Below are positions 16,282-34,458 of a DNA stretch of 64,000 nucleotides, in pieces. A program made the position numbers and the translations under genes. The notes under the pieces were generated by a model. It searched no databases and had not been told where the DNA came from. It worked only from the letters and a program-made list of their open reading frames with translations. Within the stretch, counting starts at the first letter, position 1; each line of letters begins with the position of its first letter. The stretch lies in NCBI RefSeq assembly GCF_056746865.1, contig NZ_CM163382.1; one strand, 5' to 3'.

Positions 16282-16381
16282 CGCGCCTTATTAAGCAGGG
16301 ACGAAAGGGACTTGCCCCAATACACCTACGGCGTTTACAGGTATACTCGCTAAAAATTATTCAGCGGGTTTGGAAACAAAG

Positions 16382-20352: not shown

Positions 20353-21045
20353 TTAATCTCCTGTACGGATAAGTTCTTGTCGGAGTGAATAAGTTCCGGG
20401 AGGTAAATTACGTTCTACAATCACGCGCGGGCCAAGTTGCGTGTTCGGGGAAATAATTCGCCCAGGCAAAATAATAACTTGTACGCCAAGGCGTGAACGC
20501 TGCCCGATATAACAACCTAATTTATCGCATCCGGTAGCGATAATTCCCTCTGGAGTTCGAACAGACACGGGCTGTTGATCCAGACGATGATTACTGGTAC
20601 GTACTTGTGCGCCCAAATATGCCTGGTTTGCAACTACCGAGTCGGCGATAAAGCATTGCGGACCAATCGTTGCTTCCGCTTCAATAACCGCATTTTTAAT
20701 TTCGGTGGCGAAACCAATTTTTACGCCATTGCTGATTATTGTGCCAGGACGAATAAACGCATAATTACCTATCAGGCAGTTTGCGCCAATCACTACCGGA
20801 CCCTGAATAACGGCACCGTGACAAATACGGGTATTCGCGCCGATAACAACTTCACCTGCAGTTTCATCAATAATTACCTGGTCTGCAATCTGAATATTTT
20901 TCTCTTTAACATTAAGCTTCAGAAAGTTTTTCAGTTCCTGTGACAGAAGGTTGGGAATAAGAGGTTGACGCTTCCACCAGTGCGGAATAGCGGGTGGGTT
21001 TGTCGCGCTGAGGTTCGCGTCCAGTAAAAAAGGCAATAAGTCCAT
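20353..21045 (-). CDS. yaiX: hexapeptide-repeat acyltransferase YaiX (intact here)
   Basis: left-handed beta-helix hexapeptide repeats (GANTRICHGAVIQGPVVIGANCLIG...); start uncertain (ATG 21063, ATG 21045 or TTG 21036); no IS interruption. Confidence 0.7.
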   Translation of the reverse strand: MDLLPFLLDANLSATNPPAIPHWWKRQPLIPNLLSQELKNFLKLNVKEKNIQIADQVIIDETAGEVVIGANTRICHGAVIQGPVVIGANCLIGNYAFIRPGTIISNGVKIGFATEIKNAVIEAEATIGPQCFIADSVVANQAYLGAQVRTSNHRLDQQPVSVRTPEGIIATGCDKLGCYIGQRSRLGVQVIILPGRIISPNTQLGPRVIVERNLPPGTYSLRQELIRTGD

Positions 21046-22117: not shown

Positions 22118-22789
22118 TCAAAGAATCATTTTATGAATTACAAAGCCTTCACCCAGATCGCTATTGACCTGTTGCCCGCGAAATTGTGCAACTGCACGCA
22201 GGCGATCATGACGCATATAATCGCGTCGTTCCTGGCTTTTATGTTTTTTTAATGCAGCAAGTTTGACTGTGAAATATTCTTCTTTAACGGATTCAAAAAC
22301 CTGAGGCATAAATGAAAGCCAGGTGCTTGGGGTTTCGTAGCCGAGAATTTGTGGAATAGTTCGGCAGGCAACCATTGAAGCTTGATAAACAGCAAGATGA
22401 TCCTGATGGCGGTCGGCATCATGCATGGTATATACCCGCATGATTTCAACATCAGAAGGAATTTGATTTTTAATGATGTCTTCCAGGGCGGAAATCATAT
22501 CATTGAGCTGCAAATGCGCGCGGGTGTCAGCAAAATTAAGATGAATAGTTTGGTGGCACCCTAATATCTTTAGGGCGTTGCGCGATTCTTCATGGCGATC
22601 GATTATTCCATCTGTGCCAGAGTTGCCGGTAGTCATCACCACGGCTGCGATATAAATTCCTTTTTGCGCAAGACGAGCAAGCGACGCGCCACAGCCCAAT
22701 TCTATATCGTCAGGATGTGCGTCAATAGCAAGGATACCCTTTCTTTTATTTGCCGAAGAAAGGATGGCTGAATCTAAAACCTTATCCAC
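22118..22789 (-). CDS. yaiS: LmbE/PIG-L family deacetylase YaiS
   Basis: AHPDDIELG motif typical of the PIG-L/LmbE N-deacetylase family; 223-aa ORF (start may be internal). Confidence 0.75.
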   Translation of the reverse strand: MDKVLDSAILSSANKRKGILAIDAHPDDIELGCGASLARLAQKGIYIAAVVMTTGNSGTDGIIDRHEESRNALKILGCHQTIHLNFADTRAHLQLNDMISALEDIIKNQIPSDVEIMRVYTMHDADRHQDHLAVYQASMVACRTIPQILGYETPSTWLSFMPQVFESVKEEYFTVKLAALKKHKSQERRDYMRHDRLRAVAQFRGQQVNSDLGEGFVIHKMIL

Positions 22790-25140: not shown

Positions 25141-25964
25141 GTGTGCTCATTAATGAAAAACTGCATTCGCGGCGGCTGAAATGGCGCTGGCCGCTCTCGC
25201 GTCAGGTGACCTTAAGCATTGGCACGTTAGCGGTTTTACTCACTGTATGGTGGACGGTGGCGGCGCTGCAACTGATTAGCCCGCTGTTTTTGCCGCCGCC
25301 GCAACAAGTACTGGCAAAACTGCTCACCATTGCCGGACCGCAGGGATTTATGGACGCCACCCTGTGGCAGCATCTGGCAGCCAGCCTGACGCGCATTGTG
25401 CTGGCGCTACTTGCGGCGGTGTTGATCGGCATTCCGGTTGGGATCGCCATGGGGCTAAGCCCGACGGTGCGCGGCATTCTGGATCCGATAATTGAATTGT
25501 ATCGCCCGGTGCCGCCGCTGGCGTATTTGCCGCTGATGGTGATCTGGTTTGGTATTGGTGAAACCTCGAAGATCTTACTGATCTATTTAGCGATTTTTGC
25601 ACCTGTGGCGATGTCGGCGCTGGCGGGGGTGAAAAGCGCGCAGCAGGTTCGCATTCGTGCCGCCCAGTCGCTGGGTGCCAGCCGTGCGCAGGTGCTGTGG
25701 TTTGTTATTTTGCCCGGTGCGCTGCCGGAAATTCTCACCGGATTACGCATTGGTCTGGGTGTGGGCTGGTCTACCCTGGTGGCGGCGGAGCTGATTGCCG
25801 CGACGCGCGGTTTGGGTTTTATGGTCCAGTCAGCGGGTGAATTTCTCGCGACTGACGTGGTGCTGGCGGGGATCGCGGTGATTGCGATTATCGCCTTTCT
25901 TTTAGAACTGGGTCTGCGCGCGTTACAGCGCCGCCTCACGCCCTGGCATGGAGAAGTACAATGA
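25137..25964 (+). CDS. tauC: taurine ABC transporter permease
   Basis: 275 aa multi-span permease; 4-bp overlaps with tauB and tauD. Confidence 0.9.
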
Positions 25965-26582
25965 GTGAACGTCTGAGCATTACCCCGCTGGGGCCGTATA
26001 TTGGCGCACAAATTACGGGTGCCGACCTGACGCGCCCGTTAAGTGATAACCAGTTTGAACAGCTTTACCATGCGGTACTGCGTCATCAGGTGGTGTTTCT
26101 GCGTGAACAGGCCATTACGCCGCAGCAGCAACGCGCGCTGGCCCAGCGTTTTGGCGAGCTGCATATTCATCCTGTTTACCCTCATGCCGAAGGGGTTGAC
26201 GAGATTATCGTACTGGATACTCATAACGATAATCCGCCAGATAACGACAACTGGCATACCGATGTGACATTTATTGAAACGCCTCCTGCTGGGGCGATTC
26301 TGGCGGCGAAAGAGTTACCCTCGACTGGCGGCGATACGCTATGGACCAGCGGTATTGCGGCGTATGAGGCACTCTCTGTTCCCTTCCGCCAGCTGTTGAG
26401 CGGGCTGCGTGCGGAGCATGATTTCCGTAAATCGTTCCCAGAATACAAATACCGCAAAACGGAGGAGGAGCATCAACGCTGGCGCGAGGCGGTCGCGAAA
26501 AATCCGCCGTTACTACATCCGGTGGTGCGAACGCATCCGGTGAGCGGTAAACAGGCGCTGTTTGTGAATGAAGGCTTTACTA

Positions 26583-26587
26583 CGCGA
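26583..26587. repeat. IS2 target-site duplication, upstream copy
   Basis: cgcga immediately flanking the IS2 end. Confidence 0.8.
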
Positions 26588-26598
26588 TGGATTTGCCC

Positions 26599-27504
26599 CT
26601 ATATTTCCAGACACCTGTTATCACTTAACCCATTACTGGCCCGCTGCCGTAGATATTCCCGTGGCGAGCGATAACCCAGTGCACTATGCGGATGCCATTC
26701 GTTATAATGCTCGAACGCCTCTGCAAGGTTCTTTGCTGCCGTTAACCCGTCTGGTTTAGGCATGATACTGATGTAGTCACGCTTTATCGTTTTCACGAAG
26801 CTCTCTGCTATGCCGTTACTCTCCGGACTCCGCACCGCCGTGTTCTTCGGTTCAAGCCCCAACATCCGGGCAAACTGCCGTGTTTCATTAGCCCGGTAGC
26901 ATGAACCATTATCCGTCAGCCACTCTACTGGAGACGCCGGAAGCTCGTTGCCGAAGCGGCGTTCCACCGCTCCCAGCATTACGTCCTGTACTGTTTCACT
27001 GTCGAAGCCGCCCGTAGTGACTGCCCAGTGCAGTGCCTCACGGTCACAGCAGTCCAGCGCGAACGTGACTCGCAGTTTTTCTCCGTTATCACAGCGGAAC
27101 TCGAACCCGTCAGAGCACCATCGTTGATTGCTTTCTTTCACGGCCACTTTGCCAGTATGTGCCCGTTTCGATGGCGGTACAGCGGTTTTTCGCTCAAGCA
27201 ACAGCGCATTCTGGCGCATGATCCGGTAAACACGTTTGGCATTGATCGCAGGCATACCATCAAGTTCGGCCTGTCTGCGAAGCAGCGCCCATACCCGACG
27301 ATAACCATACGTGGGCAGCTCTCCGATAACATGGTGTATACGGAGAAGCACATCCGTATCATCTGAGTGACGGCTGCGGCGACCATCTTTCCAGTCATCG
27401 GTTCGTCTGAGAATGACGTGCAACTGCGCACGCGACACCCGGAGACAACGGCTGACTAAGCTTACTCCCCATCCCCGGGCAATAAGGGCGCGTGCGCTAT
27501 CCAC
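26599..27504 (-). CDS. insD: IS2 transposase OrfB (InsD), DDE integrase-like
   Basis: 301 aa, GTG start, [30 protein letters not shown]... Confidence 0.9.
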
Positions 27505-27827
27505 TTTTTTGCACGCCCGTATTCAACGGCTTCTTTAAGGAGTTCATTTTCCATCGTTTTTTTGCCGAGCAGGCGCTGGAGTTCTTTAATCTGCTTCATG
27601 GCAGCAGCAAGTTCAGAGGCAGGAACGACCTGCTCTCCTGCGGCCACAGCAGTAAGACTTCCCTCCTGGTATTGCTTGCGCCAGAGAAATAACTGGCTGG
27701 CTGCCACACCGTGTTGCCGGGCAACAAGGGAGACCGTCATTCCCGGTTCAAAACTCTGCTGAACAATAGCGATCTTTTCCTGTGTAGTACGCCGTCTGCG
27801 TTTCTCCGGTCCTAAGACATCAATCAT
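27462..27827 (-). CDS. insC: IS2 transposase OrfA (InsC), HTH protein
   Basis: [56 protein letters not shown], 121 aa. Confidence 0.9.
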
Positions 27828-27918
27828 CTGCTCTCCAATGACTAGTCTAAAAACTAGTATTAAGACTATCACTTATTTAAGTGATATTGGTTGTCTGGAG
27901 ATTCAGGGGGCCAGTCTA

Positions 27919-27923
27919 CGCGA
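27919..27923. repeat. IS2 target-site duplication, downstream copy
   Basis: cgcga directly after the IS2 left end. Confidence 0.8.
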
Positions 27924-28187
27924 ATTGTTGATGTCAGCGAGAAAGAGAGCGAAGCCTTGTTAAGTTTTTTGTTTGCCCATATCACCAAACCGGAGTTTCA
28001 GGTGCGCTGGCGCTGGCAACCAAATGATATTGCGATTTGGGATAACCGCGTGACTCAGCACTATGCCAATGCGGATTACCTGCCACAGCGGCGGATAATG
28101 CATCGGGCGACAATCCTTGGGGATAAACCGTTTTATCGGGCGGGGTAAGGGGGAAATGCCGGGTTGGATAACCCGGCATAATGATCA

Positions 28188-29162
28188 TTAACGCAGAATC
28201 TTCTTCTCAGCCAAATCCAGCGCAAAGTAGCTGAAAATCAGATCCGCACCCGCACGCTTAATCGAACCTAAGCTTTCGAGCACGACTTTCTCTTCATCTA
28301 TAGCACCCGCCAGCGCGGCGAACTTAATCATCGCATACTCACCGCTCACCTGATACGCGCCAATCGGCAATTCAGTACGTCCACGCAGCTCACGCACGAT
28401 GTCGAGGTACGCTCCAGCTGGTTTCACCATCAGGCAGTCTGCGCCCTGGGCTTCATCCAGCAATGATTCACGAATCGCCTCACGACGGTTCATTGGGTTC
28501 ATCTGATAGCTTTTGCGGTCGCCTTTTAATGCGCTTCCTGCCGCTTCGCGGAACGGGCCATAAAAGGAAGAGGCAAACTTGGTCGAATACGACATAATCG
28601 CCGTATCTTTAAAGCCCGCAGCGTCCAGCGCCTGGCGAATCGCCTGTACCTGACCATCCATCGCGGCGGAAGGGGCGATGAAGTCCGCACCTGCAGCAGC
28701 TGCAACCACGGCTTGCTTGCCTAAATTTTCCAGAGTCGCGTCGTTGTCGACGCCATGCTCGCACAGCACACCGCAGTGACCGTGAGAAGTGTATTCACAA
28801 AAGCAGGTGTCTGACATCACGATCATTTCAGGCACGGTCTGCTTGCAGATGCGCGACATCCGCGCCACCAGTCCATCTTCCCGCCAGGCATCGCTGCCGG
28901 TTTCATCGGTATGGTGAGAGATGCCGAAAGTCATCACGGAACGAATACCGGCGTTGGCGATGCGTTCAATTTCGCGTGCCAGATGTTTCTCAGGAATGCG
29001 CATCACGCCTGGCATGGCTTCAACGGCTTTGTAGTCGTCAATTTCTTCTTCAACAAAGATCGGCAACACCAGGTCGTTAAGGCTAAGTGTTGTCTCTTCA
29101 AACATAGCGCGCAGCGCAGGAGATTTGCGCAGGCGACGAGGGCGTTGGATTAAGTCTGTCAT
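28188..29162 (-). CDS. hemB: porphobilinogen synthase (delta-aminolevulinate dehydratase)
   Basis: protein from [28 protein letters not shown] (324 aa) inside a longer track ORF. Confidence 0.92.
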
Positions 29163-29687
29163 GGTCTGCCTGATGTTTGTGGAATCGAGGGGCATAGTAT
29201 ACCTGAAGCAGGGTGGGGATGTTTTACGAAAGTTGTCGCGATGTTGACAAGAAGAGAATGAAAGAGAGTCCATGACATCTTTGTAATAGAAACAGCAATA
29301 ATTTCATATTCACTGAAAATATTTTTAATTTTTATTTATATCCCTGGATTATTGTTTTTACGGATTTGATTGCGTTATCAAAAACAGAATGATTTAAAGT
29401 TCATTGGTTATTGATAGATTATTTGTCTGGTTTGTGTGTTTGATATTTTAAATGCATATGCTTTAAAAATGGAACTCCTGTTAACTTGTTGAAACATCAA
29501 GCCTTTATCAATTTTTTCTTTGTGTGTTCCTCCGTGCTTTATATATGTCCGTAACCGGACTTCGGGGAAAGAATAATTGAACCATTCCTCTATAACGCCG
29601 CATAATCGTCAACGCGAAACATAAGATGTTTTCTATGCATTGATAATTGATGGATCAACTTATTACGTCCCTGAGGAGGGATGACAA

Positions 29688-32606
<2,919 letters not shown>

Positions 32607-33303: not shown

Positions 33304-34458
33304 TCAGGATGCGGGGATGACCAACGGTTTATTCCCGCTCAGTTCGGTCACCAGGTCATTGATGCCATCGCTCATATTTTTAAAGCGCGTCAATGGCGAA
33401 CGAGTGACCACCACAAATGCGCCAATGTTCTTCTGCGGGATCATCGCCATATAGGTAATGAAACCGCCACCACCTGTCTTCTGAATAATCCCTGGACGAC
33501 CCTCTTTCGGGGCCATATATACCCAGCCTAAACCAAGCGCGTCCGCTTTGCCGGGGACATCCATGCCAATCACTTTCGTAAACTGCGCGCGCTGATAAAT
33601 CAACGTCTGCATGCGATCTGCCTGGTTACTGCGCTGATAAAAATCAGATGACAAATACTGCTGCATCCAGCGCATCATATCGCCAGGCGTGGAATAGACT
33701 CCGCCGCTGCCAATTGCCGCCAGCGTGTTATTGCACGGACTGGCACCACGCTCAGCAACCATTAAACGGCGGCACTGGTCCGGCGAGGGGGTGTAGGTGG
33801 TGTCTTTCATCCCCAATGGGCGGGTAATCTGCTCTTCAAACAACTGGGTATAAGGCTTGCCGGACGCATTCGCCAGTGCATCTGCCAGCAGGTCGAACGC
33901 AAGGTTGGAGTACGCGGCCTGGCTGCCCGGCGCGGCTTTTAGTTTGGCAGTGGAAAGGTATTTCCAGCGTTGCTCGCGCGTTGGCCAGACAAATACCGGA
34001 CGATGTGCCGCGCCACCGGGCTGTTCACGGGGCAGGGCGCTGGTATGGGTTGCCAGATTCACTAGCGTAATGGGCGTCCCATTGTAGGTCGGTACGCGTG
34101 CGCCTGGCGGAGCATATTTACTTAGCGGATCGTTTAACTTCACGGTCCCCTGATCGAGCAATTTCACCAGCATCTCACTGGTCATTAACTTGGTGAGGGA
34201 AGCAATACGTATGACCGAATCCAGCTGCGGGCGAACGTTATTACCAGGTCGCGTTTCGCCATAACTACGAAAGACGCGCTGGTTACCGTCGATAACTACC
34301 AGCGCCATCCCCGTGGCACCGCTGCCGTAAAAAATATAATCGGCATAACGATCGACAATATCAGAGGCAAACTCCGGTTCAGTGATCGGCTGCGCCGCAT
34401 GGACGGAGGTCAATGACGCCGCACACAGCACGGCAGAAAAAAGCAGACTACGTTTCAA
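33304..34458 (-). CDS. ampH: penicillin-binding protein AmpH (class C beta-lactamase fold)
   Basis: signal peptide MKRSLLFSAVLCAASLTSVHA; SLTK active-site motif. Confidence 0.9.
   Translation of the reverse strand: MKRSLLFSAVLCAASLTSVHAAQPITEPEFASDIVDRYADYIFYGSGATGMALVVIDGNQRVFRSYGETRPGNNVRPQLDSVIRIASLTKLMTSEMLVKLLDQGTVKLNDPLSKYAPPGARVPTYNGTPITLVNLATHTSALPREQPGGAAHRPVFVWPTREQRWKYLSTAKLKAAPGSQAAYSNLAFDLLADALANASGKPYTQLFEEQITRPLGMKDTTYTPSPDQCRRLMVAERGASPCNNTLAAIGSGGVYSTPGDMMRWMQQYLSSDFYQRSNQADRMQTLIYQRAQFTKVIGMDVPGKADALGLGWVYMAPKEGRPGIIQKTGGGGFITYMAMIPQKNIGAFVVVTRSPLTRFKNMSDGINDLVTELSGNKPLVIPAS

Follow-up and report, generated by a model that had tools for sequence, protein, structure and literature searches.

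We observed that, in the 64-kb stretch of Escherichia coli DNA analysed here (the window), the taurine dioxygenase gene tauD is interrupted by a complete insertion sequence of the IS2 type. The explanation that we favour, with a probability of ∼95%, is that the chromosomal tauD was recently knocked out by transposition of an IS2-type element in an E. coli strain close to M7424; no sequence evidence contradicts this simple reading. The structure of the insertion, its boundaries, the empty site, the identity of the element and its absence from relatives were observed directly in the comparisons described below. The coordinates of the features are collected in Table 1.

IS2 moves by a copy-out/paste-in pathway that includes a figure-of-eight, a minicircle and the junction promoter Pjunc, which requires a 17-bp spacer. 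We propose that an IS2-type element would have entered the chromosomal tauD directly after codon 209, presumably by this copy-out/paste-in route through a minicircle intermediate. Integration would have duplicated the 5-bp target CGCGA and placed the transposase genes antisense to tauABCD; a truncated product of 209 + 28 residues would then be made and the taurine dioxygenase activity would be lost.

Table 1. Features of the interrupted tauD locus (coordinates in the window)
Feature	Coordinates	Strand	Remarks
IS2-type insertion sequence, complete, 1331 bp (IS3 family, IS2 subtype)	26588..27918	-	
Target-site duplication CGCGA, left copy	26583..26587		Single copy in uninterrupted tauD
Target-site duplication CGCGA, right copy	27919..27923		
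IRR, 41 bp	26588..26628	-	Outer end ...AATCCA-3' (minus strand); length from PMC3299598
IRL, 42 bp	27877..27918	-	Starts 5'-TAGACTGGCCCC (minus strand); length from PMC3299598
insC (orfA), 121 aa	27462..27827	-	Protein identical to K-12 InsC
insD (orfB), 301 aa	26599..27504	-	Intact; rve / rve_3 integrase-core domains
A6G (AAAAAAG) -1 frameshift window	27504..27510	-	IS position 409
tauD 5' part, codons 1-209	25961..26587	+	Ends ...NEGFTTR
tauD 3' part, codons 210-283 and stop	27924..28148	+	Ends ...FYRAG*; without own promoter or start codon
hemB, convergent neighbour	28188..29162	-	Intact; not part of the element; no differences from M7424 hemB

Interruption of tauD and boundaries of the element

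A stretch of 1336 bp, composed of the element and one extra copy of the target, separates codon 209 of tauD from codon 210. As it stands, the tauD frame enters the IS and reaches a stop at 26674, which gives a product of 237 aa composed of 209 TauD residues and 28 residues encoded by the IS. Joining the 5' part, which ends at 26587, to the 3' part, which begins at 27924 (the IS and one CGCGA removed), restored a TauD of 283 aa. All 283 aa of the rejoined frame align with the crystallised E. coli TauD, a taurine/2-oxoglutarate dioxygenase of the TauD/TfdA family (PDB 1GQW, 1GY9, 1OS7, 1OTJ and 6EDH; RefSeq WP_000004074.1); the alignment to 1GQW/1OS7 covers residues 1-283 with E = 1.3e-195 and contains two conservative substitutions. 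The NCBIfam equivalog model of taurine dioxygenase, NF007104, scored the rejoined protein at 554 bits (cutoff 313) over model positions 1-282 of 282.

A preliminary description of this DNA had suggested alignment to an uninterrupted tauD as a check, and the outcome agreed with its reading: the two halves are adjacent in reference genomes. The empty site was represented by a 323-nt construct carrying a single CGCGA, and it was counted as contiguous when at least 80% of the query was covered. By this measure the site was contiguous in 5418 of the 5426 complete E. coli genomes; the uninterrupted gene of many E. coli genomes, 042 and M7424 among them, matched the 323 nt at 100% identity.

With respect to the residues of the enzyme, the 5' part of tauD contains the codons for His99 and Asp101, and the 3' part those for His255, Arg266 and Arg270. 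From the crystal structures of TauD we take His99, Asp101 and His255 to form the iron triad (with His255 as the third ligand), and Arg266 and Arg270 to serve in binding of 2-oxoglutarate/substrate. The tauD gene as it stands does not encode the iron triad and Arg266 on one polypeptide. The earlier characterization of tauD as a pseudogene was borne out, the frame being broken after codon 209 and the catalytic residues separated; so was the statement that the element is antisense to the tau operon, with insC and insD on the minus strand and tauD on the plus strand.

Read on the minus strand, the element begins with the letters TAGACTGGCCCCCTGAATCTCCAGACA and finishes with ...GGAAATATAGGGGCAAATCCA. 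Its ends, TAGACTGGCCCC... and ...GGGGCAAATCCA, are those of an IS2, i.e. an IRL starting with 5'-TA and an IRR finishing with CA-3' in an element of ∼1.33 kb. Repeat detection delineated imperfect inverted-repeat arms of 33 nt with 79% complementarity, 26596-26628 and 27877-27909. Each IS2 terminal sequence has one occurrence in the 64-kb window, against 0 by chance expectation, which indicates exactly one IS2 copy in the window.

The direct repeat around the element has an apparent length of 8 bp (CTACGCGA, 26580..26587 and 27916..27923), the IS-terminal CTA of IRL being the same as the 3 nt that precede the target. An 8-bp duplication CTACGCGA was rejected: comparison with four other copies sets the ends of the IS and assigns the additional CTA to IRL; judging from these copies, the apparent 8-bp repeat is a 5-bp duplication extended by a presumably fortuitous 3-nt match to the tip of IRL. 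We placed the boundaries at 26588..27918 because the element can be aligned in full and free of indels to the annotated IS2A of K-12, and because three further copies end in the same way and are flanked by 5-bp duplications. The 5-bp duplications at other copies are ATTAC (K-12 IS2A), TCTGA (p573-1) and GAGCC (K_EC180), and the ends of these copies are identical. The direct CGCGA repeats that had been described around 1331 bp are therefore confirmed: the two copies are identical and the length is exact.

The two genes of the element, insC and insD, overlap at AAAAAAG, where a -1 slip would lead, in the correct phase, into an open OrfAB fusion of 409 aa. Pfam domains found on this predicted fusion are HTH_Tnp_1 (8-87), HTH_21 (163-211), rve (232-335) and rve_3 (324-389). 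The protein thus combines an N-terminal HTH with a C-terminal DDE (retroviral-integrase-like) core, the arrangement of an IS2 transposase. Among the NCBIfam models, 'IS2 transposase TnpB' scored 704 bits (cutoff 597), 'IS2 repressor TnpA' 276 bits (cutoff 229) and the IS3 family transposase model 284 bits (cutoff 160). The published anatomy of IS2 includes a 41-bp IRR, a 42-bp IRL, the A6G window and the OrfAB transposase (PMC3299598). Terminal inverted repeats, insC, insD and the A6G motif had all been named in the preliminary description, and every one of these parts could be located (Table 1). Judged by its coding content and ends, the insertion in tauD is an IS2-type element of full length that appears to be functional.

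Relationship to other IS2 copies

We compared the element with IS2A of K-12, which resides in yaiX of MG1655 (NC_000913.3 381260..382590). Both are 1331 bp long, and the ends are TAGACTGG...AATCCA in both; they share insC and insD with the A6G window at position 409 as well as a 5-bp target duplication, and no indels separate them. On the other hand, the two copies differ by 56 substitutions (95.8% identity), one of which is in IRR, at IS position 1305. The InsC proteins are identical, the differences in insC falling at third codon positions, and InsD has 10 exchanges among its 301 residues; over the whole OrfAB, 399 of the 409 residues are identical to those of K-12.

In ISfinder practice ∼95% nucleotide identity is the threshold for isoforms. 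With 95.8% identity to the K-12 reference the element would belong to IS2 by this measure, yet as a borderline case. The earlier designation 'complete IS2' thus stands as far as family models and anatomy are concerned; what we have in tauD, however, is not the K-12 form but a subtype that is 95.8% identical to it.

Much closer relatives were found on plasmids. The copy in p573-1, a plasmid of E. coli 573 (NZ_CP102854.1 222386..223716), is 100% identical across all 1331 bp and differs only in the insertion site; in the RefSeq annotation this identical copy is described as 'IS3 family transposase' with a 'programmed frameshift'. Many other chromosomal and plasmid copies differ from the tauD element by 1-2 nt. 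Identity of ≥99% was seen in 1780 records of E. coli; among plasmids it was seen in no fewer than 1345 records, which come from Escherichia, Klebsiella, Salmonella, Shigella, Enterobacter and others; none of the records with this ≥99% identical subtype has the element in tauD. These matches identify the element as an IS2 subtype that is common and carried on plasmids, that differs from the K-12 form and for which the PGAP label is not 'IS2 family'.

One could speculate, at rather long odds, that an IS2 sublineage ∼4% away from the K-12 IS2 is spreading on large conjugative plasmids in Enterobacteriaceae, and that the copy in tauD represents a fresh hop from plasmid to chromosome in a single isolate. 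Less likely still within this speculation, an advantage in a host-associated niche would arise from the absence of TauD or from antisense transcripts reaching into tauABC.

A source nearer to tauD was considered as well. In K-12, yaiX, located ∼4 kb upstream of tauA, is the gene split by IS2A. A local hop from a K-12-type IS2A in the nearby yaiX was rejected: this site is empty in the window, and the K-12 copy is different at 56 positions. The insertion sites of the two elements differ, yaiX for the K-12 IS2A and tauD here. The yaiX-type acetyltransferase gene of the window (20353..20934, minus strand) is intact, as it is in 042 and M7424. Since yaiX is intact here and split by IS2A in K-12, independent IS2 insertions of different subtypes have taken place within ∼7 kb of the same neighbourhood. 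In the same region there is a yaiS-like gene for a PIG-L deacetylase (∼22427..22789, minus strand), a truncated pseudogene by annotation in M7424 and 042.

Neighbouring genes and taurine use

The outward -35 element of IS2 is located in IRR (PMC9330008, PMC3299598), and it forms fusion promoters when the flank provides a -10 at the right distance; ampC, acrEF and neoR are examples (PMC9330008). In the minicircle, the junction promoter is built from the -35 of IRR and the -10 of IRL with a 17-bp spacer (PMC3299598). When IRR and IRL of the tauD element are abutted with a 1-bp spacer, the hexamers TGGAAA and TAGACT come to stand 17 bp apart; we infer that these hexamers and their spacing are consistent with Pjunc of PMC3299598.

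Given the known ability of IS2 to make fusion promoters by means of the outward -35 in IRR (PMC9330008), one has to weigh the idea that the insertion plays a regulatory or adaptive role, in that outward or read-through transcription from IS2 alters the expression of hemB or tauABC, or in that loss of TauD was selected. The orientation of the element adds to this idea: with insC and insD running opposite to tauD and tauC, read-through from the weak promoter PIRL could in principle give antisense tau RNA. However, the IRR at 26588 is directed towards tauC and the 5' half of tauD, with hemB on the opposite side. For the putative outward -35 of this IRR, TGGAAA, the flank hexamers at spacers of 15-19 bp match TATAAT in only 0-3 of 6 positions. 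The promoter scan detected no outward-reading site at either end of the IS; over 3.4 kb it returned two promoter-like sites, against 3.4 expected from shuffled sequence. Besides, hemB is convergent and is read from its own upstream promoter ∼1.2 kb away, and the presence of the insertion in 0 of 5426 genomes gives no sign of recurrent selection. We consider a regulatory or adaptive role very unlikely. The suggestion, made at the outset, that outward promoters of IS2 could affect hemB is not supported, since IRR points away from this gene, a usable -10 is lacking and the scan gave no outward site.

One promoter-like sequence (26576..26605, plus strand) spans the tauD/IRR junction, with a -35 TTTACT in tauD, a spacer of 18 bp and a -10 TATATT in IRR, and would read into the IS, antisense to insD. 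It was dismissed as a candidate, the hits occurring at chance frequency and below the number in shuffles.

Concerning other genes on this side, the ORF that covers hemB (28188..29273, minus strand) has 361 aa and begins 37 codons upstream of the start in relatives (324 aa), which is probably a mere in-frame extension. Downstream of hemB there is an intact autotransporter gene of 968 aa (29688..32594, plus strand); in K-12 the corresponding gene, yaiT, carries the annotation of a split pseudogene.

The activity of TauD is predicted to be lost because the product lacks His255, Arg266 and Arg270; the truncated protein of 237 aa should be inactive. It is known that TauD frees sulfite from taurine in sulfur starvation (PMC6906117), and a role of TauD in the release of sulfur from taurine was described also in PMC12585060. 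Cells of tauD-deficient E. coli do not grow on taurine immediately, and SsuDE-dependent suppressor mutants appear under selection (PMC12585060). The strain with the insertion is thus predicted to have lost immediate TauD-dependent growth on taurine as the sole sulfur source. This growth defect may not be absolute, since the SsuDE suppressors restore the use of taurine (PMC12585060). With tauD at the end of tauABCD, no gene downstream is exposed to polarity, and the coding sequences of tauABC are intact. Most likely, the insertion is neutral or near-neutral. For the annotation of this genome the consequence is that tauD should be recorded as an IS-disrupted pseudogene.

Age and rarity of the insertion

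The nearest complete genome that we found is that of E. coli M7424 (human faeces, Australia), which is 99.98% identical to the window across 49.8 kb and is without the insertion. Over these 49.8 kb we counted eight substitutions and two indels, of 1 bp and 3 bp, none of them in the two halves of tauD; the sole large difference (>3 bp) from M7424 is the IS with its duplication.

Both junctions were absent from all 5426 complete E. coli genomes (0/5426 at ≥80% query coverage). A 31-nt sequence of the left junction had no exact match in species-representative genomes or in JGI metagenomes, and a look-up of the exact 237-aa product, the truncated TauD, returned no record. The collections searched leave out most draft E. 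coli genomes and all Shigella genomes, and 'unique' is to be understood here as 'not found where searched'. No pertinent report on tauD together with IS2 was found in the literature.

The insertion looks recent on the evolutionary scale, and it has so far been seen in one genome only; this follows from its absence from M7424 and from all searched sets, from the perfect duplication and from the intact frames of the IS. The recent date proposed in the preliminary description agrees with these observations and with the lack of mismatches in the tauD halves. Nothing specific to this copy speaks for an old, lineage-fixed insertion or for a recombination of two IS2 copies, which one could invoke for any IS known from a single genome. 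The 5-bp duplication, though, is perfect, the flanks are collinear with those of relatives, and both tauD halves have no mismatches; in addition, another copy matches the IS at 100% identity, the frames of the IS are intact, and M7424, at 99.98% identity over 49.8 kb, does not have the insertion. An old event or a recombination is therefore highly improbable. Misplacement of an IS2 copy into tauD during repeat resolution deserves mention given that IS elements frequently cause misassembly, yet it is hardly credible here, because a misjoin would not yield an exact 5-bp duplication of a tauD sequence that occurs once, nor would it place exact ends of a complete IS at both junctions.

The recent transposition of an IS2-type element is, in itself, an ordinary case. 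Insertion of IS2, the accompanying 5-bp duplication and the resulting gene knockout are textbook matter, and the insertion in tauD is an ordinary IS2 knockout of a kind already understood, in which all IS2 features that can be tested on sequence were found. What is new is limited to the insertion site in tauD, which is absent from the searched collections. The significance beyond annotation is small, and no biological question is opened; still, the junction sequence, absent from the same collections, could serve as a marker of the strain or clone.

The two small indels relative to M7424 lie elsewhere in the window. The 3-bp one is an in-frame deletion at 33467, in a CCA/CCACC repeat of ampH (33304..34458, minus strand); the 1-bp one is intergenic, at 16315.
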